From positions 1-64,000 of IMG/VR virus record IMGVR_UViG_3300028886_000004: a stretch of 64,000 bases of DNA; one strand, written 5' to 3'. Numbering within the stretch: position 1 is the first letter of the stretch; each line of letters begins with the position of its first letter. Shown one piece after another: positions 17,735-41,862 of this stretch. Under the pieces are notes generated by a model. It searched no databases. It saw only the letters and a program-made list of their open reading frames with translations, and was not told the origin of the DNA. The translations under genes and the position numbers were made by a program. Source of the DNA: a virus. Lineage: Duplodnaviria; Caudoviricetes.

Positions 17735-17817
17735 GGGGTGTCTTTTTCAAAATATGTATCTATATTAAAGACATAAGGATGAGGCGATGTTGCCTCGCCA
17801 AACAAGGAAAGAAGATT
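17735..17817 (+). promoter_or_regulatory. conserved promoter cassette, copy 1
   Basis: GGGGTGTCTTTTTCA-N11-TATATT, leader hairpin, CAAGGAAAG RBS, AT-rich upstream tract. Confidence 0.85.
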
Positions 17818-20714: not shown

Positions 20715-21497
20715 ATGAGCGAAAGAATTATTAAGACCGGGCTGCCTAAGCGCTTCAAGGATATGCTGGCGGCCGTGATCGGCCAAATGTCCGACGGCTA
20801 TTGGGAAAACACCCCGATGATGCGTGGCTATTGGCCGTTCGTGGATGCAGCCGTGCAGGGCGATGAAGCAGTGCTGGAAGTAAGCGGTGATCGCTATTCG
20901 GGACAGCACAACGCCTACAACCGCTTCGCCGATATGACGGATGATGCCATCCGCAAATTCTTCGCCGAAAAAATCAAATTCCTCATCAAGGAAGAAGGGC
21001 TCGGCGACTGGAAGCGCGATAATGAAAAGGAAACCGATTACCTCTCTTACGACGATCCTTACCGCGTGAAGGATTGTTACTACGCTTACGAAGTCCTGAA
21101 AGGCCGTAATGTGTCCAAGCATCCGGAATACAGCGACGTGGGCAAAAGCACGAAGGAATCGGTAGCCACATCGGAAGCGGTGGAACGTGCTAGAAATGCA
21201 GTTGAAGAATTGTTTGCCCAAATGATTGCGGATGGCGCCGCCGGTATGCGCCTCCTCCCGGATGGCAAGGGCGTTGAATGCCACGACCAGTATGGGACGC
21301 ACATCCGCTACGCAAACGGCGTACTTGTATTTAAGTTTGGCAAGGATGATGCGGAAGACGATCTCCTCACCTTGGCGGAAGCAATTACGCGACACGCACT
21401 TGCACGTATCCGGCAGGACGACAACTTCATTTACATCTCCTGCCCCGTGACGCCGGAAGAAGGCGTGAAACTTCTTAATGCATATTTCAACGCCTAA
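20715..21497 (+). CDS. hypothetical two-domain protein
   Basis: AGGAG RBS; STKE/ATSE linker. Confidence 0.8.
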   Translation: MSERIIKTGLPKRFKDMLAAVIGQMSDGYWENTPMMRGYWPFVDAAVQGDEAVLEVSGDRYSGQHNAYNRFADMTDDAIRKFFAEKIKFLIKEEGLGDWKRDNEKETDYLSYDDPYRVKDCYYAYEVLKGRNVSKHPEYSDVGKSTKESVATSEAVERARNAVEELFAQMIADGAAGMRLLPDGKGVECHDQYGTHIRYANGVLVFKFGKDDAEDDLLTLAEAITRHALARIRQDDNFIYISCPVTPEEGVKLLNAYFNA

Positions 21498-21516: not shown

Positions 21517-21849
21517 ATGGGAATCAAACTCATCAAGAAAACCAAGAAGGGCGAAGCCCTCCGCAACCTGCAAACCTTCAAAAAGGACCTGGTCTACGTC
21601 CCGGAGTTCACCAATGAAAAAGCGCTCACCGACCTCGTTTGGGACATTCACGCCCAGCACAAAAACGGTGAAGATGGCTGGGAAGGCGACGCTCAGAGCT
21701 TCTCTTCCGTTCCGCGTATAATGGAACTCACCGACTATCCGTATTTGATTGCGATTGGAGGCAGCCACACGCTGTTTGCCTTCCAGTCAAAGTCGGACCG
21801 CGACTGCATCCTTAGCGACTATCTCCGTGACCCGGACTTATTGGGGTAA
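21517..21849 (+). CDS. IKLIKK-leader protein 1
   Basis: MGIKLIKKTKKGE. Confidence 0.8.
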   Translation: MGIKLIKKTKKGEALRNLQTFKKDLVYVPEFTNEKALTDLVWDIHAQHKNGEDGWEGDAQSFSSVPRIMELTDYPYLIAIGGSHTLFAFQSKSDRDCILSDYLRDPDLLG

Positions 21850-21852
21850 ATT

Positions 21853-22275
21853 ATGGCAATTAAACTTATCAAGAAAGCCAACGAAGCCGACGTGAACAAA
21901 TTCGATGTGTCGGGCGTTATTGAAGACAGCAAGAAATTCGACTTCATCAACCTGCTCTCCCGCCTGAATCAATTCAAGAATTGGGCGGAGGAACTTCACG
22001 GGCTGGTCTACTTTACGATGCCGAAGATCCACGATGCGGCCAGCGGCTCCAGCGGCTACTCCTACCGCATCTCCAATGAAGACCGCTCCTCAACGGTTCA
22101 ATTCAGCCTCCACGCCGGAACCAATCCCGAACGCTACCCTAAGTTCGAGGGCTACATCTATGCCATCAGCCCGAAGGAAACCGGGAAGGACAAGCGCTTT
22201 GACATCAATTCCATTGATGACCTGACCGATGCCCTGCAAAAGGAAATTGTAGACATCTGTAAGGGGCGGACATAA
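21853..22275 (+). CDS. IKLIKK-leader protein 2
   Basis: MAIKLIKKANE. Confidence 0.8.
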   Translation: MAIKLIKKANEADVNKFDVSGVIEDSKKFDFINLLSRLNQFKNWAEELHGLVYFTMPKIHDAASGSSGYSYRISNEDRSSTVQFSLHAGTNPERYPKFEGYIYAISPKETGKDKRFDINSIDDLTDALQKEIVDICKGRT

Positions 22276-24306: not shown

Positions 24307-25386
24307 ATGGCAATTGAATTGAGCACCCCTTCTTTTAAGCCGCGTGAATACGAAGGCGAATACATTCGATACACCTTGTACGGACTGGATTCCGACGGGG
24401 ATGAATTGGACGATCTCATCACCTCCCCGAAAAAATCAACCGTGACCCATACCATCAAGGAGCTTCTCCCGGACTATGGCCGCGTTTACAATGGTATGCA
24501 CGTGGTTGCCATCCTTTATGACAAGAACGATCGTATGCTTAATTCGGAAGTCGTTTGGTCCACGGACCAAAGTGAATCGAATGGCGCCGACGAAACCATT
24601 GAATACGAAAAGGGACACAAAAATTCCCGCGGCGAAGATGCGCCGTGGGTTATCCGCGACCATAAGGGCGGAAAGGTCCTTGCATCGTTCCCGAGCGAAG
24701 ACGCAGCCAAGGCACATCTCGCCCGCATGAAGAATTATGCGAAAGCATCCAAGGACGAAAAACTTTTCAATGTGAAGGACCTGGAAGCGTATGCTATGAA
24801 CGGGTATAAGGCTGCTGTGAGTGCCGCTTGGTCCGGTGCCGGCGTGAAGAACTTCAAAATCGATATTCGCTCCTACGATGGGGAACCGCCTACGATTGAT
24901 GTCCTTCCCAAAACCTTGGATGGCAAGGACCTTGACGTGAACTGGCGCATCCTGCCGAAAATCTTTAAGATTGTGCAGTACTCGATCAGCCCGGTCGGCA
25001 ACAGCGACATTGAACGCGAAATGGATTACCGGACGGAAGATGATATTGAAAACATCTTCACGGACGAATTCAAAAACCTTGATGCCGTTATGGATGACGG
25101 CAAGCCTGCCAAGACTGAAACGGCTCCGGACGATTATGCAAGGGATAACTTCCTGAAAGGCGCCCTGGACTATGCCGAAATCGAGGATGATAAGGGAAAC
25201 GTTGTGCTTCTCAAAATCACCAAGCGCTATGCGAATGAGATTGGCGGGGATTTCTGCCTTCGTTCGTATGACGGCGAAACGGACAAGAGCCTTGCTATGG
25301 GCGGGATTCGTTACGTAGTCGACCGCTACGGGGAATTCATTGATATGGACCCCGCTGAAGCCATCATTAAAATTGCAAAGGAATAA
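24307..25386 (+). CDS. hypothetical modular protein (possible head-internal polyprotein)
   Basis: segments separated by GADE, SKDE, AKTE. Confidence 0.75.
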   Translation: MAIELSTPSFKPREYEGEYIRYTLYGLDSDGDELDDLITSPKKSTVTHTIKELLPDYGRVYNGMHVVAILYDKNDRMLNSEVVWSTDQSESNGADETIEYEKGHKNSRGEDAPWVIRDHKGGKVLASFPSEDAAKAHLARMKNYAKASKDEKLFNVKDLEAYAMNGYKAAVSAAWSGAGVKNFKIDIRSYDGEPPTIDVLPKTLDGKDLDVNWRILPKIFKIVQYSISPVGNSDIEREMDYRTEDDIENIFTDEFKNLDAVMDDGKPAKTETAPDDYARDNFLKGALDYAEIEDDKGNVVLLKITKRYANEIGGDFCLRSYDGETDKSLAMGGIRYVVDRYGEFIDMDPAEAIIKIAKE

Positions 25387-25391
25387 CGAAA

Positions 25392-25715
25392 ATGGGAATC
25401 AAACTTATCAAGAAAAAAGCGCCCGCCACCCTTTCGGAAAGTGGCCTGAACGCCCCCGCCAAAAATGAAGGGCGCGTAACGTCCTATTTCGTGGTCCGCA
25501 AAGACGCGGACGAAAAGGCAGTCGAAAAGATTGTTGCCACGCTGGAAGATGCGATTCTCAATAATCAAACGGTTGAAACCACCGCTAACCCGGACGGCAC
25601 CGTTTCGATTGATATCTATGGCAGGATGACCCCGGACGAGGTTGCCCGCGCACTCCAGCTTCCCGGACAACTTAGCACATCTTACGTCGATCTCGCAATC
25701 AATATCGAGGGCTAA
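25392..25715 (+). CDS. IKLIKK-leader protein 3
   Basis: MGIKLIKKKAPATLSE..AKNE. Confidence 0.8.
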   Translation: MGIKLIKKKAPATLSESGLNAPAKNEGRVTSYFVVRKDADEKAVEKIVATLEDAILNNQTVETTANPDGTVSIDIYGRMTPDEVARALQLPGQLSTSYVDLAINIEG

Positions 25716-25716
25716 A

Positions 25717-26169
25717 ATGAGCACAAACGATTTTCGCGGCTATTACTTGGATGTATGGATTGGGCTGACCAAGGACCACAAGTTGTCCTCCGCAGAAGCC
25801 GACCGCCTTTGTGACAAATACAAGCAAATCATTATCAATGGTTTCGAAGAAGGCGAAGGACCGGTTAAAATTTCCGACCAGCTTGCCACGCAAGACAAGC
25901 GCGAGGCACATGAACCGGGGACTAAGTGGTCCGCCGGAATCCGTGTTGCCTTCAATGGCGAAAACGACGCCAACGACAAATGGGTCAAGGATTATGAAGG
26001 CCAATCGGTTTGGAATTTCTTCGATGATCTTTCCGACACGCTTCCGCCCCGCGAGGCATTGAAATGTATTCCGGCCCGCTACAAGGATGCTTTCAAGGAT
26101 TACTGCATCTACTACGGGATGAAATGGCCGGAAGATAATTCTAACCAAGGAGATACCGCCAATGCCTAA
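25717..26169 (+). CDS. hypothetical protein
   Basis: GAGG RBS. Confidence 0.7.
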   Translation: MSTNDFRGYYLDVWIGLTKDHKLSSAEADRLCDKYKQIIINGFEEGEGPVKISDQLATQDKREAHEPGTKWSAGIRVAFNGENDANDKWVKDYEGQSVWNFFDDLSDTLPPREALKCIPARYKDAFKDYCIYYGMKWPEDNSNQGDTANA

Positions 26170-26797
26170 AATCAAAATGATTGAGGCGGCTCGCCCCGCC
26201 GAGGACATTGTCATCCGTGGTGGGAATCACCACATGAAGCCGGACAGCATCTATATCCGCATCCCCCGTAAAAAGCTCGTTGAACTGGGCTTTTTGAAGG
26301 ATGGCGAACTGCCGAACGACAGCACCGCAAGCGCCGTGCGCCGTGCCTTGAAATTCGATATCAAGGCGGTCCCGGATACGCGCTTTGGCGGGAATGACTA
26401 CTACCTGACCATTTCTATCGGGGACATCTCCGAGGAATACTACCTTGAAGAATACTGGTATACCCAGCAGGGTTCGTCCTTTGAAAATTGGCTGCGCAAT
26501 ACACATCTCACGATCCGTCCGGAAGAACCTTGGGAACGCAAGTCGGAAGCAGTGCTTAACCGCATTACGATGCACGACGCGCGTAAAAAGTGCGCCGCCC
26601 TCCAAAAGTCCGGGAAGCTGTCCAACTGCCTTCACGAAGTCACGGCGGCCATTGCGTTGGTCCAAAACGCCCTCGCAAACAGCAGCCCGGAAATCAAGGA
26701 CAACACCTTGAATTCCACGGAAAAGAAAATTGTCGCACGAGCTGTGTTGGCTGAGATTGTTTCCAATTTCAACTACCAGCCGGAAGATTTGAGGTAA
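26162..26797 (+). CDS. MPKIKM-leader protein 1
   Basis: MPKIKMIE; AAGGAG RBS. Confidence 0.8.
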   Translation: MPKIKMIEAARPAEDIVIRGGNHHMKPDSIYIRIPRKKLVELGFLKDGELPNDSTASAVRRALKFDIKAVPDTRFGGNDYYLTISIGDISEEYYLEEYWYTQQGSSFENWLRNTHLTIRPEEPWERKSEAVLNRITMHDARKKCAALQKSGKLSNCLHEVTAAIALVQNALANSSPEIKDNTLNSTEKKIVARAVLAEIVSNFNYQPEDLR

Positions 26798-28869: not shown

Positions 28870-29567
28870 TGGCAGAAAAGAAAATAATCTACGACTTTGA
28901 AACGGTCCTCAGCATCCTTGTGAAGTCTCAGGAAGATTTGATTGAGATTGTCACCAAGTGGAGCGCGATGTTGGACACCACCCCGCGTTATGTGGAGTTC
29001 AATTTGTCCGGCAGGGATCAGCCGCTCGTAGTGCCGAACATTCAAATGGTGGTTGATACCTTGAACGAACGCTCCGTCCCGAACGACCTCCGCGTTCATA
29101 GCGTGGTCACCTCCACGCTTGGCGGCGCTGGAGAGTTCAATGCAGGGCACGTCAAATTCGAAGGCTCGGGCGTCCGCACGACTTATGGCAACTACGGCAT
29201 TGAAGGCGCCGCGTGGCATGTCACCAACAGCATTGCGGCAACCCCCGGTTTGAAGACGTGGCCGCTGCCTCGCTATTGGGTGCACTCCGGCTCCGGGGAA
29301 AATATGGAATTGGATATCCACCTCGGCATCAATTCGCAGCTTCCCCGCTCAGGCACGTTCGCGGTTAGCGAGTTCTATGTTTTAATCGGCGACTCCCGCA
29401 AGATTATGAACATCTATGGCGTTGACCCCGCCGGAAGCCGCTATGCAAAACTTACGCTCACCACGGCCGGAAGAACCGGCGCCGTGATGTGGCACGTTAT
29501 CGCCGTGGCAAACAACCCCGAACGCGGCAACTCCTATCTCACGCTTTACGCAAACATTATGGAATAG
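28869..29567 (+). CDS. putative tail/baseplate appendage protein
   Basis: coupled to baseplate gene; shared N-terminal KW..LD module. Confidence 0.6.
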   Translation: MAEKKIIYDFETVLSILVKSQEDLIEIVTKWSAMLDTTPRYVEFNLSGRDQPLVVPNIQMVVDTLNERSVPNDLRVHSVVTSTLGGAGEFNAGHVKFEGSGVRTTYGNYGIEGAAWHVTNSIAATPGLKTWPLPRYWVHSGSGENMELDIHLGINSQLPRSGTFAVSEFYVLIGDSRKIMNIYGVDPAGSRYAKLTLTTAGRTGAVMWHVIAVANNPERGNSYLTLYANIME

Positions 29568-29571
29568 ACTT

Positions 29572-30693
29572 ATGGGAAAATCGGCAGACTTTAGCGAAGG
29601 AATCAAGCTCATCCGGGAAGCACACGCGGATGCGGTTGCCATTCTCGAAAAATGGCGAGAACTGATTGACGCTCCCGGTGAAATTACCCTTACTATTAAG
29701 GACGAAAACGGCGAGCCTCGCACCGTTACGCTCCCTTCCATCCGTGAAGCCATCAACCGCTATCTCGGCGGATCCTTTGAAAGAATTACATTGACCAACG
29801 GCACTTCCGTTGTCGTGATCGAGCTGGATGAGAACGGGCAGGTTGTTATCCGCAACGCGGATTCCTCGGTTACCAATTTCATCACGGCGAACCTTGCGGC
29901 ATCGCGCATCATTCCGAAAGGCGGCAGCGGCATCTCGATTTTGGGAAACACCGTTCTTTCCGGCGGCGTCATCCAAAACGCAAACATCCACGATCTTACC
30001 GCATACACCGGACAAATCTATGGCGCCGAATTCAAAGGCACCACAGCCATTTCCGGAGGCGCCCGTATCACCGGAAACGCCACCATCCGCAACGCCACCA
30101 TCAAAAAGCTCAATTCCGGCTTGGTCAAATACCGCAAGCAGGTTTTGAAGTGGGGCGTGGAGGCAATTGTTGACGAGCAGCTCATCACATCCGTGAATAA
30201 CGGCTTGTGGGTTGGCGACCCCGCCATTCTTGAAAGGGCTGGAATTTTCCCGGAGCCTACTTGGGCGGACTGCATTCACGTGCCGACGGCGTGGCCTACT
30301 TCGGGCCTTCAGCTGGAAGTTTGCTTGGGCGACCCGAATATGGGCGACACGGTCATTACGGACTCTTTCGCTACCTTCTCGCCGTGCTATGCAGCCATGT
30401 GGCCGTACAAAATGTATGAGGCGGTTGAAGGCGGCTATCGTATTCGCTGGCTTCCGTTGGATGATATGGAAGGCCGCGTTACCTATTATTGGACCGGCAA
30501 CGTGGCGCCGTCCGTGGGAAGTTCCACCGTGATGATGTGCGACGATCTTCGGGTCGTCAGTGCCTTGACCGGTATGGAAGCCGCCGTGGAAAGACGCTTT
30601 GCGCTTAGTTCCTATGCGTGCCGCCGTTTCGTGGCCGCTATGAAAACGGAATCAAACCCCGGGGCGTCCGTCACAGATAACCTTCTTTTTTAA
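29572..30693 (+). CDS. putative tail spike/fibre protein
   Basis: shared N-terminal module; Gly/Asn/Ile beta-helix-like repeats. Confidence 0.6.
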   Translation: MGKSADFSEGIKLIREAHADAVAILEKWRELIDAPGEITLTIKDENGEPRTVTLPSIREAINRYLGGSFERITLTNGTSVVVIELDENGQVVIRNADSSVTNFITANLAASRIIPKGGSGISILGNTVLSGGVIQNANIHDLTAYTGQIYGAEFKGTTAISGGARITGNATIRNATIKKLNSGLVKYRKQVLKWGVEAIVDEQLITSVNNGLWVGDPAILERAGIFPEPTWADCIHVPTAWPTSGLQLEVCLGDPNMGDTVITDSFATFSPCYAAMWPYKMYEAVEGGYRIRWLPLDDMEGRVTYYWTGNVAPSVGSSTVMMCDDLRVVSALTGMEAAVERRFALSSYACRRFVAAMKTESNPGASVTDNLLF

Positions 30694-30707
30694 CGGCGAG
30701 GTGTTGA

Positions 30708-31931
30708 ATGCTTTTGGATACCGAAACCGCAGTTAAAATCGCGCATGATATTATCCACGACGCCGAGGAGTTCTTTGATAAATGGCCGCGTCTTTTAGAC
30801 ACTAAGGAGGAGGCGCCCGAAGGCTATGTCGATTTTGAATTTTCCGATGGCAGCCTCATCCGCATGCCTTGCTCTTGGCAGGCGCTTTTGTTTGCGCAGG
30901 GCGCCGAAAGACAGAAACTCGAATTCAAACGCGGCGGCACAACCGTAACGTGGCAGCCCGGATCTGTAGTGGCTGCCCGCGGATCCATTGAAGGACTTGT
31001 CTCCGATGGTCCGGTTGCCGTGGACAACCTCATTACGGAATCTATCCTCGGAATCAGTAATGGGACAACTTCCAGTGTTGAAATTGTGAAGGGACAGTTT
31101 GATGCGATCACCGCGATGGCGATTATCATTGCGGCATCCGTGATTGAAAAGTTGACCGTGAATAACGATGCAACCATCACCGGCGGCAAGTTTGAGAACC
31201 TGCTGGCAGGCGGGGAAGGCTACATCGATGCGGATGTTGAAGAATGGGGCGGCGATTCGATTGAGGTGGAAGACCTTGTCACGTCCGGCGAGCAATACGT
31301 TGCGGTTGAAAAGATGAATGCTTGGACGCAAGGCTCCCCGCTCGCGCCGACCACCGATGCCAAATACACCGGGACCATTCCATTCCTCCCGCTCAACGAA
31401 AAAGCCCTGCCTATCAATGGCTTTGACAACCCGCTCGAATCCAACCCGTTCTTCCCGGACTGGTTCTATACATGCAACCAGGACGGCCCCTACAATCCGC
31501 ATTATGCTTGGGTGCCTTCGCTTACAAAGCCTTCGAAGCCTGCTTGGCGGGATTCGGACGGCATTTATTGGTATCAGGCAAAGGTGACGTGGGATGTCAG
31601 CATGTTCGGCACGGTGAATATGATTTATCCGCCGCGTTGCCGCACCGAGGATAACTACGACTATGTTCTCCCGCCGGTGCCTGCTGCGGCGGATGGGCTG
31701 GTCATTACGGTTCAGCAGCTGGACGATTCCTTTGTTCCGTATACTACCGGGGACCGCTACGAATACCGGAACGAGAACGAATGGTATTGGTATCCGGGTC
31801 GTGCCATTCAGGTGAGAGGGCCTGCCCTTACTCAGTTTGTCCTCAAGCGCGTGTTCACCGTTGTAAACGGCGCAATCACTGCGGTTGAATATCAACTCCT
31901 TCCGTTGGGGGATGTAAATGGGCGTACTTAA
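30708..31931 (+). CDS. putative tail spike/fibre protein
   Basis: shared N-terminal module; beta-helix-like middle region. Confidence 0.6.
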   Translation: MLLDTETAVKIAHDIIHDAEEFFDKWPRLLDTKEEAPEGYVDFEFSDGSLIRMPCSWQALLFAQGAERQKLEFKRGGTTVTWQPGSVVAARGSIEGLVSDGPVAVDNLITESILGISNGTTSSVEIVKGQFDAITAMAIIIAASVIEKLTVNNDATITGGKFENLLAGGEGYIDADVEEWGGDSIEVEDLVTSGEQYVAVEKMNAWTQGSPLAPTTDAKYTGTIPFLPLNEKALPINGFDNPLESNPFFPDWFYTCNQDGPYNPHYAWVPSLTKPSKPAWRDSDGIYWYQAKVTWDVSMFGTVNMIYPPRCRTEDNYDYVLPPVPAAADGLVITVQQLDDSFVPYTTGDRYEYRNENEWYWYPGRAIQVRGPALTQFVLKRVFTVVNGAITAVEYQLLPLGDVNGRT

Positions 31932-34797
31932 TACTTCGTATACCGCTTCGCAATATGCAGTTGTATCCAAGAACAGGGACTACATTGTCTTGCGCGTCTT
32001 GGATGATTCCTTGTATAGCACCTATTGGAAAGAATTTCTGTCCGCGAAAGTGAACGCGGGCCCGACTCCTCCCGGTCCGAAGGTGAAGCCGATGTATTTG
32101 CGCCTCGAGCAGGTGCCGCCGGAAACCACCCTTGTGGACCAGTATGCAAATTTCATACCGGAGCTTCCGCTCGTAACCATCGAGATGGATGGCGAGCGCA
32201 TCAACGTGACCGATCGTATCACGGCGAATACGCCCAATACGGAGGTTCCAGGGCTGTTTCGTATCGATTACCGCATAAATCTATCCCACGAGTTTTCATC
32301 GCCTATTTGGGCCGTTTATGTCTCAATACAACAGCGTCCGATTTTGCGAAAGGCCGCCGCGGGCTGGGTGCGCGATAGCTATGTGATTCAAACGCTCAAC
32401 CGCCTTGTGATGGAACCGCAGTTCTTGGAAGCACTCCACGCCGCGGGCGAACCGCTTTACGGCTTTATGGAGGCCAACCAGCATCCGTCCGTAAGGGCCT
32501 CGAATCTCTACAAATATGAAGGGCTGGAAGCGTGGGGAGCTGGCGGCGCGTTTAACGACCACTCCAACGGCATCTTCATCACCGGGCTGAAACTTCCGCA
32601 AGGCTCCATCGTCATCTATCAAAGACGGATGCTCCAGCTTCGCGAGCCCGTTTGGCCGGATCCGGTCGGCGCCTTCCATCATATGGATCCGCTGACCCAC
32701 GAGCGCACCCCGGATGCCTATTCCAAGGGTAGCGTCGTGCGCGATGGAGATTCCTGCTACATTTGTATCAACGAGGCCAATTCCGGTATTCCGATGAGCA
32801 ACGCGGACTACTGGCGCAAAGGCTATCTCTACAAATTCAATGTCCTTAACGGCGACGATGATTTCAGGTTGCCGCGTGGGCGCCTGCCAGTCGGCAAAGG
32901 CGGCGTGGAACATATTTGGATTACGGTGGACAACCAGGGCTATTCGTTTTGGGTGGACATCGCCAACCAAACGTCCATCGGCACATATCGCGGATACTAC
33001 GACCGCAAGCACTACGCCGACTACGGCACCGGGGATATGGTCACCTATATCTCCGAGGATGCCATCAAATTGTTCAAGCGCAAGGCCACGGACATTCAGG
33101 GGCAGGATACCTTGATCTACCCGCCGGGACATCATCTCAACCCCGCTTGGGATGAGGTCTTCGCCAAATTCCCCGAGGAGCACCAGCCGCTGTTCTCCGA
33201 TTACTTTATTGTCCCGCATACCAACGCGTCGAACGCTGTTCTTGCAAAAACGTGGACAGTGTCGGAAGAGATGTGCGAGGCCTACGGGAATATGATGGGT
33301 ATTCCTCCGCTGATCGTGAAGGAGTGCGGCGCCAAGTGGTCCGCATTGCTTTTCGCATTGCTGTCCCGCACACGCAACACCTTTGAAGGACTCCGCGTTT
33401 GCTTCCGGGCGGTTGGCTTGGATGTGGAGAATCTCCGCTTGTCCGATCCGTCCCTCAAATACCTGTGCAACCCCGATGGCGACGGGCTGGAAGAGGTTGA
33501 TGACGTTTACACGCAACACGAGAATCTCCGCAGGCTCATTGCGAACATTGATTCGCTGGCGCCTGAGGGCAAAGAAAAGGCGGAAGAGGGTTGCCTCCGC
33601 TATGTTACCGAAAATACAGAAGGCGCCGATTCGAAGGACATCAATGTTGCCATCCAGCAATATTCGGAAGCGGATGGCGGCTGGGTTACGCGCTATCGCT
33701 TTGAAAGGATTGAGCCGGCACAGAATTTCAATAACCGCTACTACAAAGGCGATTTGAATGTGCTGGCACGCCTCGCCGAGGATGCAGTTGCCGATTTGGG
33801 CGATGGACATACTTGGGTGAAGGAGTCCGCTTGGGCAGGCAACCCGTCGGCGCTCGTTGCCGAATGCCTTACCTATGAAATTCCTATCTACATTTTCCTC
33901 CGCCTCAAGATTTGGCTCTATGCGGAAAACCGCATTGAAATGCAGGGCTTCGTTTATTCCGGACTTTGCGATGGTCAACGCGGCGGCGCCAAGAATGTGA
34001 TTGAATTGTTCCCCTCGCGCTACTTCAGCCGCGTTGCCCACAACTTCGTTGATGTGGAAACCGGGGTGTTCATTAAGGAGAATGACGGCTGGACCGAAGT
34101 GCAGCCTACGCGCTACAATGAGGAACGCGGTTCCAAAATCTATGAATTCAATGGAATGGTGAATCCGCTCCGCATTATGGCGGTGGACCCGGACAATGTA
34201 TCGTTTGTCCGCTATTGGCAATCGACCCACACGTTCGGCCTGCTCGGGCTGGCGGATTCCACATCGACCGTTAACGAAGTCCCCTTCTTCAACGATGCGC
34301 ACTTCCATAACGTGACCGACCCGGACATTACGGACGAAACCGAATTGATGCTTATGAATGGCTATGTCGGGGTCACGGCATTGTATCGCCCGAAGGAATT
34401 GCACGCGCTCGCATCCGCCCGCCGCTGGATGTATGTTCTCGGCGAGGAGGACTCCGAGGAGAAGTGGGAATTGAGCAACGACGTTGCCTTCGCGGACTTT
34501 GCCGATATCGAGTCCACGGCCATCTATCCGTTTGAAGGGGATGCGGCTTCCTTGAAGGCTGCTCTCAACTACGTCACGGACGGGGAAGGCAATCGCCTTG
34601 ACTTTGAATGGGATGGCGATGAATTGGTCTTCCACGACATCTTCCCGGATGCCATCTACCTGAGGGACAGCGACGGGGTTATCCTTGGCGCCTACGCCTT
34701 GGTGGCCGGACAATACACATTGACGCAGACCGATTACGACCACTACCGCACGGAAACTCCCTGCACATCTGTCCGCATTGGTTTTTCCTACGAGTAG
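31918..34797 (+). CDS. large baseplate/tail protein with CBM5/12-like modules
   Basis: 959 aa; YSKGSVVRDGDSCYIC..YW module; RNTFEGLRVCFRAVG resembles wedge gp7/P2 I KGT..G motif. Confidence 0.6.
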   Translation: MGVLNTSYTASQYAVVSKNRDYIVLRVLDDSLYSTYWKEFLSAKVNAGPTPPGPKVKPMYLRLEQVPPETTLVDQYANFIPELPLVTIEMDGERINVTDRITANTPNTEVPGLFRIDYRINLSHEFSSPIWAVYVSIQQRPILRKAAAGWVRDSYVIQTLNRLVMEPQFLEALHAAGEPLYGFMEANQHPSVRASNLYKYEGLEAWGAGGAFNDHSNGIFITGLKLPQGSIVIYQRRMLQLREPVWPDPVGAFHHMDPLTHERTPDAYSKGSVVRDGDSCYICINEANSGIPMSNADYWRKGYLYKFNVLNGDDDFRLPRGRLPVGKGGVEHIWITVDNQGYSFWVDIANQTSIGTYRGYYDRKHYADYGTGDMVTYISEDAIKLFKRKATDIQGQDTLIYPPGHHLNPAWDEVFAKFPEEHQPLFSDYFIVPHTNASNAVLAKTWTVSEEMCEAYGNMMGIPPLIVKECGAKWSALLFALLSRTRNTFEGLRVCFRAVGLDVENLRLSDPSLKYLCNPDGDGLEEVDDVYTQHENLRRLIANIDSLAPEGKEKAEEGCLRYVTENTEGADSKDINVAIQQYSEADGGWVTRYRFERIEPAQNFNNRYYKGDLNVLARLAEDAVADLGDGHTWVKESAWAGNPSALVAECLTYEIPIYIFLRLKIWLYAENRIEMQGFVYSGLCDGQRGGAKNVIELFPSRYFSRVAHNFVDVETGVFIKENDGWTEVQPTRYNEERGSKIYEFNGMVNPLRIMAVDPDNVSFVRYWQSTHTFGLLGLADSTSTVNEVPFFNDAHFHNVTDPDITDETELMLMNGYVGVTALYRPKELHALASARRWMYVLGEEDSEEKWELSNDVAFADFADIESTAIYPFEGDAASLKAALNYVTDGEGNRLDFEWDGDELVFHDIFPDAIYLRDSDGVILGAYALVAGQYTLTQTDYDHYRTETPCTSVRIGFSYE

Positions 34798-34851: not shown

Positions 34852-35088
34852 ATGGGCATCAAACTTATAAAGAAAAAAACCGAGGCAAGCACTTCCGTAG
34901 GCGAGTTTCAGGCAATTCTTGATTCGCTGGCGGGGCTGTATGCCAATGACGTTCAATTCAAGTATGACGGCGACCAAAAGGTGGTGGCGGTAACTAAAGG
35001 GGACAAGACCATTGGAACTGTCCGTGCCGAAGGTGCCCTTCACACAATCATTTGGGCGACGCTGAGCCTTGCGGAGAAAGAAGCGTGA
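34852..35088 (+). CDS. IKLIKK-leader protein 4
   Basis: MGIKLIKKKTE. Confidence 0.8.
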   Translation: MGIKLIKKKTEASTSVGEFQAILDSLAGLYANDVQFKYDGDQKVVAVTKGDKTIGTVRAEGALHTIIWATLSLAEKEA

Positions 35089-35096
35089 TAGCGATT

Positions 35097-35939
35097 ATGA
35101 CAAATCAAGGCGCCCTTGAAGTCGGCCGCTCCCTTTCCGGGGGCAGTCGTTTTCTTGCTTGGGAAGCCGCTCTCCTCAAAGAGAACTTCGATGGCGAATC
35201 CGTCGATCAGGTGGCAAATATCACCTCCGACGATATAAGCCTCGGCGCCGGATTGATTCACGGCAAACAAATTGTCCATACATTTGAATGCACCGGTTCC
35301 CTGCCGGTTCAGGTCTCCTCCGAGGATGGCGGGACCGAAGTGAAGGCGATGGCGGTTGATTTCGATTTCAACGGCCAAGTCCCTATCGAAGAGGGATCCA
35401 GCTCCAGCAGCGGCAGCGGCGCCGGGAACACCTCCCTGGAATACTCCGCCGTTGTGGCTCTTGCCCGCCGCTACTCCAAATATCAAACGGTTGCCCCGGG
35501 GAGGACCTATAACGTAGGCGACCACGTTTGGCTTCCCTATGAAGCCGACCCCCAGCGCACGAAGGCGTATGTCTGCCTTACGGACGGATTCGTATACGCC
35601 GGCGTCCTGCCTAGCGAGGACACGGAGCATTGGATGGAAACATCCACTGAAACGTTGATTAACTATCCCGGCGAGCCCGACTTCTATTGCGACCCGAACA
35701 GCGACATCATTCCCTTCTTCGTTACCTCCTACGACGACCCCGTCACGATGGCAAATGGTATGGAATGGGAATACAAGGTCCGCGTCTTCTTGGACAATGT
35801 GGTTACGACCAAATTGTCCGAGCTCAAGTATTTCTCAAAAGGCGGGCTGGAAGTTAACGGCAGCCTGATGCTCACATTCCTTGCGAACACCGCCGAGATG
35901 TTCCGTGCCATCCGAGAAAAAGTTTCAACCGCTTCCTAG
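35097..35939 (+). CDS. putative tail-fibre attachment/collar protein with CBM5/12-like module
   Basis: MTNQG N-terminus typical of tail-collar domains; TYNVGDHVW..YVC..P....HW. Confidence 0.5.
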   Translation: MTNQGALEVGRSLSGGSRFLAWEAALLKENFDGESVDQVANITSDDISLGAGLIHGKQIVHTFECTGSLPVQVSSEDGGTEVKAMAVDFDFNGQVPIEEGSSSSSGSGAGNTSLEYSAVVALARRYSKYQTVAPGRTYNVGDHVWLPYEADPQRTKAYVCLTDGFVYAGVLPSEDTEHWMETSTETLINYPGEPDFYCDPNSDIIPFFVTSYDDPVTMANGMEWEYKVRVFLDNVVTTKLSELKYFSKGGLEVNGSLMLTFLANTAEMFRAIREKVSTAS

Positions 35940-35951
35940 CGAGGTTCTTTT

Positions 35952-36515
35952 ATGCCGAAAATCAAAATGCTTGAAAAGCTGTCCCCCTATAAGGTAACCT
36001 ACTTGGCGGACAGACCGGGCGAGATTGGCGCCAAGCTCTATGCGAAAAAAGTTTTTGCCGGCAACGACCGGGATGCCGTTATCACTTTCAACAACTGGTT
36101 TGATACCTGCAAGTCCTTCCCCGAAGGTTCCTCTTGCGACATTCAAAAGGTCGAATTGATTCAAGGCGAAAGCGCCAACAAGTCCTACACATTTACTTGG
36201 TGGGACAACGAGCCCACCGCCGACCGCCGCCCCACCACGAGGGCGGATTTGAAAAATTGCCTGCACAAGGAAATTTTCCTTGCCGTCGATGATGCGGAAG
36301 CGCTGAAGCTGGCGATGGAATATCTTTGCGATTACACCGGCGATGACCCCGAGGATGTTGCCGACACGCCGGAAAAGATTTGGGACCACTTCAACAGCGA
36401 TTGGGGCTCCGGCGATCCTATTCCGATGGTCCTCAAGCAGCGCAGCCGCGTTGTCAAGGATTCCGGCTTCAATCCAAATCGCGAAGACGACGAATCCAAG
36501 CACACCAAAAAGTAA
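35952..36515 (+). CDS. MPKIKM-leader protein 2
   Basis: MPKIKMLE; GAGG RBS. Confidence 0.8.
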   Translation: MPKIKMLEKLSPYKVTYLADRPGEIGAKLYAKKVFAGNDRDAVITFNNWFDTCKSFPEGSSCDIQKVELIQGESANKSYTFTWWDNEPTADRRPTTRADLKNCLHKEIFLAVDDAEALKLAMEYLCDYTGDDPEDVADTPEKIWDHFNSDWGSGDPIPMVLKQRSRVVKDSGFNPNREDDESKHTKK

Positions 36516-36528
36516 AGGACAGCATATT

Positions 36529-37794
36529 ATGGGAATCAAACTTATCAAGAAAACAAACGAGTCCTTTGAATCGGACTTGGAAAACATTGCGCAGACCAGC
36601 GGCGAAATCGAATACGATGACGCCTGGAAATTGAATCGCTCCGCCGCCAAGGATCCGGAACTCCGTAAAAAGGTCCGCAACCTGATTGGCGATTGGCGCA
36701 GCGCCGCCGAGGACGAGGACAACGATGAAATGACAAAGGCCGCCAAGGCGCTCAAGGCATTGGCGGATTCCCTGCCTAAGCAGGAGGCGCGTATGCACCT
36801 CGGCCGCTGCGTAAACTGCCACGGCGGATGGACCAAGACCAATTACGTCGATGAACTGGAACCGGACGTTCGCAAATACTTCAAGGGAATAGGCTTCGCG
36901 GATAACGACGACGTTTGCCCCAAGTGTGTTGCGGCGGTGAAAAAGCATCTCGCGCAGGGCAAGGCCGAAGGCGCCACCTATGACGAATATGTGGACGCGG
37001 TTGCAGCCAGCCTTGAAGATGACTTTGAATACAGCCCGATTACGGCGCTTGAATTTGCCCGCGATGATTTCAAGGACATCACAAAGGCCTTCTACAGCGC
37101 TACCAAGACCCCGAAAGAAGCCGCAAAGGAAATTGACGCCAAGTATATGGGCGAAGGCCGCAAAAAGGCCGAAGGTCACGAAGGCTGGGACGATTGGGAA
37201 GAAGTCGAAGGGCTGGAAGAATCCATTGAAGGAATTGAAAACCTCGCCTACGAATTGCGCCACTGCATTCGCGGCGCCAAGACCCATTGCAAGGATTGGA
37301 AGTCCCTCGCCCTTTACATCAAGGGACTTGCATCCAACCTTGACGATGCCGCCGAATTGATGGCATACAAAACGGACAGCGATGACGATGATGAATCCGC
37401 AAATGAATCGGACAATCCCGTAGGCGAACTCTTTGATGCCTTGAAGCAGGCGCTTGCCGGAAAGGGCTACAAGGTTTCGCAGTTCACCTCGGACAAGGAA
37501 TTTGTCGGACAGAAGAAGGCTTTCGACGGCATAAGCATCGAAAGTGAGGACCCCGACGCGTACCACAAAAATCCGTACCGCATTGTCCTTGATACGGATG
37601 ACAACCTCTTCCGCATCTTCTTCCCCGGGGTTCGCCGCAAATCCGTAACCGGACAGCCCGGCAGCATTTCGGGCATTGTCAAATTCATCTTGCGCGACCT
37701 CAATTTGGATGAATCCAAGAAGAAGAAAAACCCGAGCAAGGATTTTTCGTCCACTGTTGAAGAGGACGAAGATGGCAGAAAGAAATCTCACTAG
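36529..37794 (+). CDS. IKLIKK-leader polyprotein-like protein 5
   Basis: MGIKLIKKTNE; junctions PKQE, GKAE, KKAE, SANE; one CxxC..CxxC segment. Confidence 0.82.
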   Translation: MGIKLIKKTNESFESDLENIAQTSGEIEYDDAWKLNRSAAKDPELRKKVRNLIGDWRSAAEDEDNDEMTKAAKALKALADSLPKQEARMHLGRCVNCHGGWTKTNYVDELEPDVRKYFKGIGFADNDDVCPKCVAAVKKHLAQGKAEGATYDEYVDAVAASLEDDFEYSPITALEFARDDFKDITKAFYSATKTPKEAAKEIDAKYMGEGRKKAEGHEGWDDWEEVEGLEESIEGIENLAYELRHCIRGAKTHCKDWKSLALYIKGLASNLDDAAELMAYKTDSDDDDESANESDNPVGELFDALKQALAGKGYKVSQFTSDKEFVGQKKAFDGISIESEDPDAYHKNPYRIVLDTDDNLFRIFFPGVRRKSVTGQPGSISGIVKFILRDLNLDESKKKKNPSKDFSSTVEEDEDGRKKSH

Positions 37795-37802
37795 GAGTTT
37801 TT

Positions 37803-38141
37803 ATGCACATCAAACTTATTAAGAAAACAAGTGAAGCCGCCCGAGACCTGGAAGCAATTCGTGCCAAGTTTTGCGACAATCCGGATCTCGCCAAAATAGG
37901 GTGCCTCACCGAGCCTTATGAAGGCAACGCCATTTTTGGAACACAGACTTGGAGCGATGGCGTCCCGATTACAAAACACTGGCATCGGGATAACAAAAGC
38001 CAATGGGTGTCCCTTAAAAAGGGAACGCGCTGCATCGCATTGCTTGATCAGGACGGCGGGGAAGTTGAGGCCGTTTGGATTCCATACCGCAACGGATGGC
38101 TCCGTGTGGATGGCAGCGACATCGAAGTAAATTTTAACTAA
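37803..38141 (+). CDS. IKLIKK-leader protein 6
   Basis: MHIKLIKKTSE. Confidence 0.8.
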   Translation: MHIKLIKKTSEAARDLEAIRAKFCDNPDLAKIGCLTEPYEGNAIFGTQTWSDGVPITKHWHRDNKSQWVSLKKGTRCIALLDQDGGEVEAVWIPYRNGWLRVDGSDIEVNFN

Positions 38142-38157
38142 AACACCGAGGACTATT

Positions 38158-39693
38158 ATGGGAATCAAACTTATCAAGAAAACAAACGAGGCTGCCTACA
38201 CGGCGGTCAAGAATCCGAAGCAGGCCGCTTTCATCATTGATTGCGGTTCCCCGGAAAAGGCAAAGGAATTGAACGATGCCTTCTCGGTCTTAGCCGAAAA
38301 GGTGTTGGACCGCGATGACAAGGAAGCGGGAGACGCAATCGGGCGAAACGTTATTATGTTTTATGATGTCGGCCCCTTCTTCACCGCCTGCGTCGATCCT
38401 TGTGACAAGGCAGCCGCGTGGTGTGAAGAATGGCTCCGCAATTCCGGCGGCGCAGCACCTGCTATTCAGGGCAATTCCGCCGGGCTGGAAAGCAAGGCAA
38501 ACGAGGATGACGTAGGCGCCCGCCTCCGTGACATTCTCAACGGCAATGACGTTTGGTCCGAAGTGAGCGGCGGCGATAACGATTCGCTCGTGGACAACAT
38601 CCTTGACGGCGATTGGATTGGCTTGATGTGCGGACCGAACAGTGACGACGCTGCCGATTGGGATGCCTACATCAAGGACACCTTCGGTTCCTTCAAGCAG
38701 TATGTTGAAGCCGAATGGTTCTCCCCGGATGAAAATGACCCGAACTTCAAAACTGTCCACATCAAGTTCAAGCCGCGTTTCGCCCTTGGCGATAAGGAAA
38801 CGCAGACCAGCGTTCTCAGCCAGCTCGGCGACAAGATCGCGGATGGCTACTTCGCTATGGCGGAAAAGCGCCACGAGGCGCTGTCCCCGAAAATGCAGAA
38901 GCGTCTTAAATTGAAGGCGTGGCAGGACAACTCTGTGAAAATGAAAGGCTTCGATGAAGCCGGTTACTCGTTCCTCGATTTGTATGAGGACGGCAAGTGC
39001 GACACAATCGCCGTCCCTACCAAGGGCTATCAAACCGAAAAGGAAGCGCTCGACGCCGCAAAGAAAATCTTTGACGACTTTGACGAATACTTCGAAGTGA
39101 CCGCCCACTTCGATGAAGAAGGCGGACCGGATGGCGAAGCCGTGTGGTTCCCTGCCTACGGATTGAAGAAGACCTTTGTGGACCTCCCGGAAGGCGAAGG
39201 GCTGGAAGTTCTCTCGGAACTCTCCGATGTCCTCTATCGCCTGTATACAAAGGGCGAGTCCGCAAGCGAAGACCGCCGTGGCACGGACCGCTACGGACAC
39301 CACGTCAAGCGCTTCACTACAAAGGACCTGAAGGGCTTGGATGGCGATGGCGACGCGGCTGGCGACAATGGTGGCAACGGCGCCGATGCGGGAACGGGAG
39401 CGGATGACAAGTTTGGTCTTGCCTATATGGACACGACTTCGATTTCCGCGTTCTCCAACAACTTCAGCACCAGCGAGCGCGACAACTTCCTGCACGACCT
39501 CGCCCAAATGCCGGTGTCCAAGAAATCGATTGAGGACCTGCTCCGCAAGCACAAGCTCCACAAATACGGGCGTGAGGTTGGAGTCCGCGACTTCTTCCCG
39601 GACAACGGAATCGCCTACCTCGGAACATATGGCGATGACGGCCTCCCGTATAAGTCGCTGTACCTCAAGTGGGGTCCGGCGCTGAAGAAATAA
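38158..39693 (+). CDS. IKLIKK-leader polyprotein-like protein 7
   Basis: MGIKLIKKTNE; junctions KANE, KRHE, SASE. Confidence 0.82.
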   Translation: MGIKLIKKTNEAAYTAVKNPKQAAFIIDCGSPEKAKELNDAFSVLAEKVLDRDDKEAGDAIGRNVIMFYDVGPFFTACVDPCDKAAAWCEEWLRNSGGAAPAIQGNSAGLESKANEDDVGARLRDILNGNDVWSEVSGGDNDSLVDNILDGDWIGLMCGPNSDDAADWDAYIKDTFGSFKQYVEAEWFSPDENDPNFKTVHIKFKPRFALGDKETQTSVLSQLGDKIADGYFAMAEKRHEALSPKMQKRLKLKAWQDNSVKMKGFDEAGYSFLDLYEDGKCDTIAVPTKGYQTEKEALDAAKKIFDDFDEYFEVTAHFDEEGGPDGEAVWFPAYGLKKTFVDLPEGEGLEVLSELSDVLYRLYTKGESASEDRRGTDRYGHHVKRFTTKDLKGLDGDGDAAGDNGGNGADAGTGADDKFGLAYMDTTSISAFSNNFSTSERDNFLHDLAQMPVSKKSIEDLLRKHKLHKYGREVGVRDFFPDNGIAYLGTYGDDGLPYKSLYLKWGPALKK

Positions 39694-39750: not shown

Positions 39751-39840
39751 AATGGCGCATAAATGCGTTTTACGGCGCTAAAATATGAAAGGCAGGTATT
39801 TGCCTGCCTTTTTATTTTCATGCGCTTATAGGCGCGTTTA
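39751..39840. repeat. dispersed palindromic element, near-identical to 5301-5377
   Basis: AGGCAGGTATTTGCCTGCCT plus ATGCGCTTATAGGCGC. Confidence 0.8.
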
Positions 39841-41862
39841 CGGCGCAGGGATTGCTATACCAGCCAGGGCGAGGTAGCGCTTCGCATTTGTACGGGCGTT
39901 CAATTCCTGCTCCGCTATCTTTCGCATAGCCGCACCATCTTCCGGCTTATACTTTAACAATTCCGCAACAAGCGCCCGAACAGTGTTGATTGGCGGGAGA
40001 CCACGCCCCGTAAAATTCGCGCGTGCGCAAGTATGCCAATTCTCGGCGGTGATATAGCCGCATCCGGTATACGGATTCAATTTGCGATTGTCCCAAGATA
40101 TACACGCTCTCCCGCACGCCATACCATCGTAAAGGGAGCGCCCGATTCCTACAACAATGTCCGCATCGTTTATCAAGTCTTCAACGTGCCACACGCGCTG
40201 CCCCACTTCTTTGGGGACGCTTTTGAAGGTCCAGCCTAATTCCTTGCAGGCGGCCTTCAACATAGAATCATCGCCTTGACAGATGGACAATACTCGCGGG
40301 CAAAGGGCTGCCGGGCGAGCAGGCCCACGCAGTGGGGACTTAGAGGCATAGCGCTCCAAATCTTCGCCGTTGCGCATAAGGATCGTTTCATAACCGCGTG
40401 CTTTCAAAAAGTCCTGAATCTCTTCGGATATGGACACATACGCCTTGGCGCCTTTAATTGGAAATTCTAGTGAGGTCCACTTGCTGTGGCAAGTTTGAAC
40501 AACGGGGCATTTACCGATGAATTCTTTTCCGGATTGCTGGTTCGCAAAGCAGGCCGCAAGCGGGGTGCCCCACTTGTACGGCTGAGCGCCTATTTCCTTG
40601 AGATACTTTTCGGTCACGCCGTTCCCGTCCATATCCGGCGCGTAGTAATAAACGGTATACCCTAAATCGATAAATGCCTTGCTCATTGCCCAATTAAAGG
40701 TATCGGTCCCGCCAATAAATTTATATGTCCCATTCGCAACACAAATATTGCGGCAATTAGGATCGTGAATGATTTGATGCCCTTTAACAATGGCAGCGGG
40801 ACCTTTGCAATATTCTGCATACATTGCCGGGTATATCTTATAAAGGTCGGAATACATCCCGACGGAATTGGTGCTGACATCCCCTAGCGCTGCTATTTTA
40901 CTCTTATCAAATAACATAGTCAGCATCCCTTCAACCATATAACGCATACTTTCGGTTTTATTGCGGGCGCTGGCTAATTTCAAATCAATGGCTGCCTTGC
41001 GCGATAAAAGGGCGCTCCCCTTATACGCTTGGAACGAGCCGGAGGCGTGATACGGGTGGACATTCCATCCAAGTCGGCGTGTCCAGTCCGGGTTTGCGTG
41101 GAGCAACCCGCATACCGCTGGCTTCGCTTCTGTTGGGGCAATAGTGAACAGTGCCCTATACATCAAATAGGACCAAAACGTTATTCCCTTAAAATTCCCG
41201 TAATCATAAAATACAGAAGACTTATTGCGCGTGCTTCCCGGCTTATGGCTGGTCCCTTTGAAATGCAAATAATACATGTCCGCGTCCGCCTTGGCGGCGC
41301 CTAGAAATTCATTGTAGGTGCCCCACTCCCAAGTATCGGAATTGACAACCCCTTTGATGTCCAGCCTTGCTTTCCCGCGACCAAGCGCCGTCTTCAATGC
41401 GTTGGACACATATGCAGGCACCTTGCCGTCGCCTGCTACGCGGATGTGAATTTCATCAAAGAAGTCCGCCGCGTCAAATGCCCACAGCATATTGAGGTGG
41501 AAAATTTCGATCGGCTGGAGTTCTCCGCCGCATGTCATCCAATGGATAAACGCAATGCGTTTGCCTTTCCAATGGGGCGCACATACATTTGATTTTGCAT
41601 AAACGGGGACGCCCCAAAGTTGAAGCAGGCTCTGTGTCTCCGCCGACGGCGTGTTGGCTTTTTCCGCCAAGTCCTTACGCTTAGACAGGGACTTGTCCAC
41701 CTTGTATTCAACGCCCGGTATTCCCGCAAGCCTGCCGTGGACAAAGCCTTCGGAGTGAAGGACAACTACCTTCTCCTTCTTCGCAAGCGCCCGCATTATC
41801 TTCGCCTGATTGAGCTGGATAACCGTTTCCGGCTCATACGCGTGGTCTACAATCTTAACCAT
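39838..41862 (-). CDS. multi-domain glycosyltransferase (YxHxKG-type domain + C-terminal GT-B/GT4-like domain)
   Basis: MYYLHFKGTSH; GGTDTF, ADIVVGIGRSLYDGMACGR. Confidence 0.8.
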   Translation of the reverse strand: MVKIVDHAYEPETVIQLNQAKIMRALAKKEKVVVLHSEGFVHGRLAGIPGVEYKVDKSLSKRKDLAEKANTPSAETQSLLQLWGVPVYAKSNVCAPHWKGKRIAFIHWMTCGGELQPIEIFHLNMLWAFDAADFFDEIHIRVAGDGKVPAYVSNALKTALGRGKARLDIKGVVNSDTWEWGTYNEFLGAAKADADMYYLHFKGTSHKPGSTRNKSSVFYDYGNFKGITFWSYLMYRALFTIAPTEAKPAVCGLLHANPDWTRRLGWNVHPYHASGSFQAYKGSALLSRKAAIDLKLASARNKTESMRYMVEGMLTMLFDKSKIAALGDVSTNSVGMYSDLYKIYPAMYAEYCKGPAAIVKGHQIIHDPNCRNICVANGTYKFIGGTDTFNWAMSKAFIDLGYTVYYYAPDMDGNGVTEKYLKEIGAQPYKWGTPLAACFANQQSGKEFIGKCPVVQTCHSKWTSLEFPIKGAKAYVSISEEIQDFLKARGYETILMRNGEDLERYASKSPLRGPARPAALCPRVLSICQGDDSMLKAACKELGWTFKSVPKEVGQRVWHVEDLINDADIVVGIGRSLYDGMACGRACISWDNRKLNPYTGCGYITAENWHTCARANFTGRGLPPINTVRALVAELLKYKPEDGAAMRKIAEQELNARTNAKRYLALAGIAIPAP

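Follow-up and report, generated by a model that had tools for sequence, protein, structure and literature searches.

Leader-bearing mosaic proteins with glutamate joints in a tailed-phage genome: candidate cargo chains of the phage head

We analysed the first 64 kb (64,000 nucleotides, hereafter the window) of IMG/VR record IMGVR_UViG_3300028886_000004 (Caudoviricetes), a complete viral sequence of 134,991 bp bounded by direct terminal repeats. Two closely spaced + strand genes, starting at positions 36529 and 38158, encode proteins of 421 amino acids (aa; P0001) and 511 aa (P0002) that open with the same N-terminal leader and carry recurring sites ending in Glu. A sequence-only reading of this DNA had described them as polyproteins in which one targeting leader delivers several independent cargo domains, to be released by the head-maturation protease. 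The modular and shufflable part of that account is borne out by the mosaic homologues and breakpoints described here, whereas targeting, release by the protease and delivery are argued from analogy with other phages.

The 36529 and 38158 genes

The Glu sites of P0001 are E11 (KKTNE), E86 (PKQE), E147 (GKAE), E215 (KKAE) and E293 (SANE), and those of P0002 are E11 (KKTNE), E116 (SKANE), E240 (KRHE) and E371 (SASE); every junction listed earlier for these genes was found in the translations. The segments between sites measure 61–140 aa in the two proteins, and a short leader-bearing gene lies between them. The features of this part of the window are listed below, with folds as predicted by the structure models.

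36529..36561, + strand, leader MGIKLIKKTNE of P0001, a putative capsid-targeting peptide with a candidate protease site at its end
36562..36786, + strand, module 1A (aa 12–86), helical, PKQE end; exactly deleted in homologue P0013
36787..36969, + strand, module 1B (aa 87–147), zinc-ribbon-like (CxxC...CxxC), GKAE end
36970..37173, + strand, module 1C (aa 148–215), helical, KKAE end
37174..37407, + strand, module 1D (aa 216–293), helical, SANE end; the best-conserved module
37408..37707, + strand, module 1E (aa 294–393), alpha/beta
37708..37794, + strand, conserved C-terminal tail DESKKKKNPSKDFSSTVEEDEDGRKKSH (aa 394–421 of P0001) and stop codon
37803..38141, + strand, stand-alone protein of 112 aa consisting of leader MHIKLIKKTSE and module Y
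38158..38190, + strand, leader MGIKLIKKTNE of P0002
38191..38505, + strand, module 2A (aa 12–116), alpha/beta sandwich, SKANE end
38506..38877, + strand, module 2B (aa 117–240), KRHE end; missing in locus L012
38878..39270, + strand, module 2C (aa 241–371), SASE end
39271..39693, + strand, module 2D (aa 372–511; G/D-rich linker and folded core 416–511) and stop codon

Homologues begin at the leader Met of 36529, which places the gene start there and discounts the longer open reading frame (ORF) that opens at 36343. The self-contained CxxC..CxxC segment attributed to P0001 is present at aa 87–147, and its four Cys are retained across homologues in the alignment consensus. Tandem repetition of one domain is ruled out as the origin of the chains, there being no significant similarity between modules.

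The 28-residue tail closes dozens of mosaic variants, irrespective of the module that precedes it, and its first residue, 394, is an additional breakpoint hotspot of P0001 that was absent from the earlier list. The start of the tail looks like the linker that precedes a joint (DESANE, DESKRNE). The tail may act as a signal at the C-terminus, or it may be a joint that has decayed. An extra motif-like site, E61 of P0001 (RSAAE/DEDN, the slash marking the candidate site here and below; 36709–36711), lies within the confidently predicted helix of module 1A; it is probably no joint, because no homology breakpoint occurs there.

The leader family

The leader is an N-terminal, basic and amphipathic peptide of 11 residues, M-x-I-K-L-I-K-K-x-x-E, with the end pattern K-[TAK]-[NST]-E/[SA]. 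As M[GAH]IKLIKK, with Glu within a few residues, it opens seven + strand genes in the window, which start at 21517, 21853, 25392, 34852, 36529, 37803 and 38158; comparison of all genes found M[GAH]IKLIKK on no further gene of the 135-kb genome. Leader codons vary synonymously, and the leader Glu codon is either GAA or GAG. A second leader type, MPKIKM[IL]E, opens two genes, 26162 and 35952.

A related leader, MSIKILKK (in fuller form MSIKILKKFTGKKSE), starts a scaffold-like gene, whose small acidic product is encoded between the head protease and capsid genes; this leader is retained in distant relatives. The arrangement is retained in two complete genomes of 131.7 and 128 kb that are more distantly related, their candidate cargo being about 45% identical. 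Their leaders have diverged to MAKIKLAKKNE, MANINLKKNE, MSIRLVHKKAE and MHIQLVHTQAE, with the K-x-E/[GAS] end kept; the latter two are the forms found on the counterpart of the 78-aa protein encoded at 34852.

Mosaic homologues and syntenic cassettes

We detected 53 metagenomic homologues of P0001, whose coverage ranged from 17% to 100% with the covered part highly identical, and 40 of P0002 in a search without length limit. To judge by the record names of homologous contigs, the source may be the rumen or gut. Collinear homologues retain the joint Glu, and others have lost, gained or exchanged whole modules. P0013 reads MGIKLIKKNE/ARMH, that is, 1A is excised exactly between two Glu sites. 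Module 1B directly follows the leader in P0013, P0053, P0024 and in the relative genome G001. Depending on the protein, 1C is preceded by AQGKAE, ELIQSE, AKAFHE or SRKKAE, and 2D by ESKASE, KKFRSE or AKQRSE. Module 1E is swapped for module Y in P0019 and P0038 and missing in P0015 and P0023; Y stands in frame after 1D in P0019, P0038, P0052 and L001.

Exchange also extends across the two genes: P0053 (leader-1B-2B-2C-2D) is a hybrid of 36529 and 38158, and both there and in L010 module 1B takes the place of 2A. P0057 is a 2A–2D junction, with 2D fused straight to 2A, and P0061 a 2A–2C junction. Some homologues, among them P0067, P0070, P0062 and P0068, consist of one module each, part of them with a leader of their own: 2A is alone in P0067, 2C stands alone in P0070 behind its own leader (MSLKIKMIHKKQE/GLSPKM) and also in P0062, and the 2D core occurs alone in P0068, P0088 and P0093–95. 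In G001, a module 2A match at 114982–115302 (− strand) crosses one in-frame TAG, and this stretch may represent a chain that has been split or was interrupted recently; a leader-bearing ORF of G001 (MARIKLQRRE...) begins right after an upstream reading frame.

In syntenic loci of close relatives, the cargo set is hypervariable (brackets enclose one gene; L, leader):

Window: [X1-X2] [L-1A-1B-1C-1D-1E-tail] [L-Y] [L-2A-2B-2C-2D]
L001: [X1-X2] [L-1A-1B-1C-1D-Y] [L-2A'-2B-2C-2D]
L010: [X1-X2] [L-1B-2B-2C-2D]
L012: a different mix, with the N-domain of the 20715 family

Each segment had been expected to recur as a stand-alone gene or in other orders, and when searched for separately the segments were indeed found alone, reordered and swapped between genes in related phages. 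Searches of cultured phages with megablast and tblastn found no relatives of the cargo genes.

Conservation of the joints

Joint contexts were taken as the eight residues before the module start in each homologue, and only distinct contexts were counted (n=128). Glu occupies P1 in 107 of them, and 122 of the 128 have it within one residue register, against a background Glu frequency of 9%. The joint consensus, [KSG]-[KA]-[NASH]-E/[GASD], is the same as the leader end, in line with the earlier remark that internal junctions mimic it. Glu persists at joints after non-homologous upstream sequence, Asp nearly never takes its place, and the P1' residue is small. The joint Glu codon and adjacent codons vary while Glu stays, so conservation acts at the protein level and does not reflect a DNA recombination signal. 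Nor can the joints be put down to DNA microhomology alone, since codons and adjacent residues vary and Glu is constant.

Homology breakpoints fall at the same sites. In P0001, 28 of 70 breakpoints lie at most 5 residues from a Glu site where 8 are expected and where none of 2000 random draws gave more than 17, and in P0002 the figure is 10 of 23, with 1.6 expected. The motif is matched 6 and 4 times in the two proteins and 0.5–0.7 times in shuffled ones, a weak test since the regular expression was derived post hoc. We therefore regard a modular mosaic built on Glu joints as almost certain.

Predicted structures and family searches

Structures were modelled with AlphaFold2 using homologue alignments. 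The P0001 model has a mean predicted local distance difference test score (pLDDT) of 66 and a predicted template modelling score (pTM) of 0.29, with low confidence at residues 1–10, 144–148, 208–229, 275–293 and 397–421 and a dip at 81–90. For P0002 the mean pLDDT is 80 and the pTM 0.42, with low confidence at 1–12, 99–115 and 367–415. Low-pLDDT linkers thus coincide with the leader, E147, E215 and E293 of P0001 and with E116 and E371 of P0002, and the dip is at E86. The sequence-only reading had predicted independent small folds with disordered linkers at the Glu sites, and this is what the models give at most of them: P0001 and P0002 are predicted to consist of separate small folds whose connecting stretches at the Glu sites are poorly ordered, E240 excepted.

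A wide structure search with the P0002 model retrieved only weak, generic alpha/beta-sandwich matches (Z <= 7.2), none of which extends beyond a single module (10–99, 109–240 and 244–366). Foldseek searches of the PDB with both models returned nothing at E <= 0.001, and an ESM Atlas search with module 2D gave no usable match. Ten cargo proteins had no family match in Pfam or PHROGs.

Other modular genes in the window

Further leader-bearing or modular genes lie upstream of 36529:

20715..21497, + strand, leaderless protein of 260 aa; N-domain at aa 1–148
21517–21849 and 21853–22275, + strand, two leader-bearing genes (leader match)
24307..25386, + strand, modular protein of 359 aa without standard leader; joints E96, E151 and E271
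25392..25715, + strand, leader-bearing protein of 107 aa; joint AKNE26
26162..26797, + strand, protein of 211 aa with the second leader type, MPKIKMIE
34852..35088, + strand, leader protein of 78 aa (MGIKLIKKKTE); position constant in all relatives
35952..36515, + strand, protein of 187 aa with the second leader type, MPKIKMLE; ELIQGE72 is the joint between its two modules

Junctions had also been proposed for several of these genes, and relatives place module borders there. At E96, E151 and E271 of 24307, relatives insert extra modules, and Glu stands before each module; at E26 of 25392, L016 has about 88 extra aa between leader and module; and the N-domain of 20715 ends at E148/E154 in relatives. 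The two modules of the 187-aa protein (residues 1–75 and 74–186) are found apart in other proteins. For 19508, a related-locus search found no relatives.

In relatives P0031–P0036 and P0040, the N-domain of 20715 (aa 1–148) precedes a complete internal MGIKFIKKNE leader and P0001-type modules. Such complete leaders inside fused proteins (CKMGIKFIKKNE/SFES in P0032 and P0034, HNMRIKFIKKNE in P0036) show that fusion of leader-bearing genes can give rise to chains. The proteins either are cut at these internal leaders or result from gene calls that merge two genes. At most joints the site residues alone persist and the rest of the leader is gone.

Directly upstream of the variable cassette lies a block of six large genes (26977–34797 and 35097–35939; 630, 232, 373, 407, 959 and 280 aa) whose order is the same in all relatives. 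None of the six has a Pfam or PHROG match or a counterpart in cultured phages, a Pfam search of the block together with the flanking genes gave nothing useful, and the 959-aa neighbour is without relatives among cultured phages (megablast, tblastn). The downstream border of the cassette is a 674-aa gene (39838–41862, − strand), which shows 33–45% identity in relatives where its neighbours show 85–95% and appears to evolve fast. Elsewhere in the window, a DUF932 protein (17779–18759; Pfam E 5e-29; PHROG 1221) adjoins replication genes for a DnaB-like helicase (12497–14014) and a processivity factor (14011–15024).

The head protease and neighbouring head genes

The complete genome (G000) has a candidate gene for the head-maturation protease named in the earlier account:

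G000 85823–86854, head maturation protease (PHROG match)

Its product further resembles proteins that carry the annotation prohead core scaffold/protease in several phages, and homologues at about 49% identity carry PF03420 (Peptidase S77). The family profile aligned with T4 gp21 at 94.9% probability (hhalign, E 4e-8) and retrieved the gp21 crystal structure 5JBL from the PDB (hmmsearch, E 1.4e-5); a search of the PDB with the single protease sequence gave no match. H88 and S142 are invariant in 22 protease homologues and align with two Ala positions of 5JBL (NAPP, GVASRG) that are His and Ser in wild-type gp21. By these comparisons the genome is predicted to encode a head protease of the T4 gp21 family with conserved catalytic His and Ser.

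Downstream of the protease lie the 166-aa acidic scaffold-like protein, a putative Gp23-type capsid protein and then a tail sheath gene. The capsid protein scores 21 bits against PF07068, under the 24.4 cut-off, and most of its homologues at 50–57% identity carry this domain; a related-locus search found no relatives of it. Compared with T4 gp23 alone, it gave a weak match (hhalign, 8% probability), too weak an alignment for the known gp23 cut site to be transferred. Candidate motif-like sites are kept in relatives in the C-terminal part of the protease (SKNE268; FKNE or AKCE in relatives) and at the N-terminus of the scaffold-like protein, and the capsid protein has an invariant K63-x-Y65-E66. 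AKSE41 was dropped as a capsid site because it is not conserved, and the same holds for PKHE335 as a second protease site.

A GTP cyclohydrolase I gene (G000 84892–85512; Pfam E 4e-46) is just upstream of the protease, and relative L011 has a PTPS-family gene (21342–21431). The two hint at a deazapurine or pterin pathway, perhaps DNA modification.

Comparison with known systems

The closest precedent for this arrangement is that of the T4 internal proteins. IPI, IPII, IPIII and Alt likewise share an N-terminal peptide of about 10 residues that is common to otherwise unrelated proteins and has a Glu end followed by a small residue; a gp21-family protease is likewise encoded, and the gene set differs between relatives. 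The T4 internal proteins are comparable in size to the small products proposed here. To our knowledge, the basic leader M-G-I-K-L-I-K-K is unrelated in sequence to the T4 capsid-targeting sequence (CTS). In contrast to T4, one leader heads chains of two to six modules in which the site recurs, Lys or Ala replaces Leu or Ile at P3, and the modules are acidic. The phage itself is only remotely T4-like, its protease and capsid protein being detectable by profiles only.

Proteases of the gp21 family cut after Glu in T4, phiKZ and SPN3US, several times per precursor (PMC10052503; PMC9026906). Positions 8 and 10 of the T4 CTS control processing, and Asp at position 10 stops processing without stopping targeting (PMC9026906), an effect that the near-absence of Asp at the joints parallels. 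In phiKZ and SPN3US, the homologues cut after S/A/G-X-E or A-X-E, often repeatedly in one precursor (PMC10052503; PMC5694885). The systems of phiKZ, 201phi2-1 and SPN3US (gp175 / gp245) therefore resemble the one proposed here in the gp21-like protease, the Glu cuts, the small or polar P3 residue and the multiple cuts per precursor, as well as in their paralogous and variable families of ejection proteins. However, their cuts lie in long, mostly discarded propeptides that yield one mature fragment, whereas each piece here is a separate exchangeable module with a predicted fold of its own, and the leader is short and T4-like.

Polyvalent proteins (Iyer et al. 2017, PMC5512222) are likewise many-domain mosaic chains that shuffle fast and are expected to travel with the DNA into the capsid and on into the host. 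In contrast, they are large proteins composed of recognizable enzyme domains, have their own metallopeptidase where processing is proposed, and are without a shared leader or a repeated head-protease site. With regard to polyvalent-type domains, no Pfam domain was found in P0001, P0002 or their neighbours, and neither model gave a significant fold match. The polyproteins of picornaviruses and potyviruses also combine one chain, repeated sites at domain borders and a viral protease of their own, but their biology is unrelated: the products there are replication proteins, and here they would be cargo of the virion, released by cutting within the procapsid.

Judged by its sequences, the system is not a relative of the T4, phiKZ/SPN3US or polyvalent cargo proteins. 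It differs from the published cases in joining a short leader to exchangeable folded modules with copies of the site, in its Lys/Ala-x-Glu motif and in belonging to a divergent clade. Literature searches turned up no account of cargo chains joined by protease sites in this way.

Proposed processing and alternatives

We propose, with a probability of roughly 0.6, that these proteins are cargo inside the head, organized like the T4 internal proteins but lengthened into multi-module chains that are leader-targeted and Glu-cleaved. The leader would probably target each precursor to the prohead scaffolding core, where the gp21-family protease would probably cut after the Glu at the leader end and, probably, also at each internal joint. 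Folded, mostly acidic modules of 7–15 kDa would thereby be freed and would stay in the head as internal proteins, and during infection they could accompany the DNA into the host. Joint-to-joint recombination would reshuffle the cargo in frame: since each module starts just after a joint, recombination there gives in-frame functional chains, which would account for the cassette-like variation between related phages. On this evidence the leader-bearing proteins are quite likely to be head proteins, and cutting at the internal joints has somewhat better than even chances. That the proteins are directed to the capsid, cut by the head protease and delivered into the host is proposed by analogy with the T4 CTS and from the gp21-family protease in the genome, and we likewise infer retention in the head, ejection and the roles of the modules.

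Several observations weigh against this proposal. The cargo genes are 45–65 kb away from the head gene cluster and adjoin the conserved block. The cleavage specificity was deduced from the joints themselves, and the deduction is partly circular. P3 at the joints is mostly Lys or Ala, unlike T4 (Leu/Ile) or phiKZ/SPN3US (Ser/Ala/Gly), so their cutting rule is not simply transferable. PF03420 searched directly on the genome gave no match to the protease, and membership of the family is thus argued through homologues and profiles. The E240 joint lies at a break between two confidently predicted helices and is not disordered, so that a protease may be unable to reach it. Finally, the modules (7–15 kDa) are mostly acidic (isoelectric point 4.2–4.6), unlike T4 IPII and IPIII, which are basic.

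The same joints could instead belong to uncleaved multidomain head or ejection proteins of the polyvalent style, from which the leader at most is removed and which act whole, the joints being flexible linkers descended from leader ends after neighbouring leader-bearing genes fused. Mosaic proteins packaged whole are known among the polyvalent proteins (PMC5512222), the complete leaders that survive inside the fusions indicate that joints can derive from leaders, and the E240 joint looks structured. Yet at most joints the targeting part has decayed and the Glu and small P1' residue are near invariant despite variable codons, which argues for selection on cleavage-site residues and not on a linker; the rarity of Asp in place of Glu points the same way. 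We consider this explanation unlikely, though it is the best of the alternatives.

Cleavage could also serve another end, if the proteins were accessory scaffold or core components that are cut so that the pieces clear the head before DNA packaging, as with T4 gp22, gp67 and gp68. Core proteins and propeptides of T4 and phiKZ are cut many times and exit the head (PMC5694885; PMC9026906), the proteins described here are acidic and partly helical, and the scaffold-like protein has a similar leader and similar sites. However, the predicted pieces are folded domains of 7–15 kDa, including the Cys4 zinc-ribbon-like module, and not short peptides, and hypervariability of the set is rarely seen in assembly components but characterizes cargo that serves in conflicts, which leaves this role improbable.

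That the leader is unconnected with the capsid, being some other assembly or export tag or a conserved translation start with the Glu joints as conventions of domain linkers, would suit the distance of the cargo genes from the head genes but is very improbable, as the length, position, Glu end and multi-gene use of the leader fit the T4 CTS, a related leader stands on the scaffold-like protein, whose gene is flanked by those of the protease and the capsid protein, and conservation of the leader holds for the peptide and not for its codons.

Implications

The natural-recombinant evidence is unusually clean in this system. Natural recombinants fix the module borders to the residue and so provide ready-made test constructs, and the modules add about 20 new small protein families for anti-defence screening. 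The second leader/site pair could serve for packaging foreign proteins into capsids. For annotation, long ORFs of this kind should be read as several products, if they are cut as proposed.

More broadly, and tentatively, since we put the chances slightly below even, phages with a gp21-type protease may share a grammar of leader and site by which any small protein could join the capsid cargo, be linked into chains and be reshuffled in frame at the joints. This would amount to combinatorial delivery of pre-made effectors, perhaps anti-defence proteins, represented here by a diverged Lys/Ala-x-Glu form and by modules without known folds. If the chains are in fact packaged and cut, the T4 internal-protein principle would not be a curiosity of T4 but an extensible system in which a single short tag and a recurring cut site serve for loading, combining and exchanging many small proteins that act at DNA entry, the point at which anti-restriction and other counter-defence proteins would matter most.

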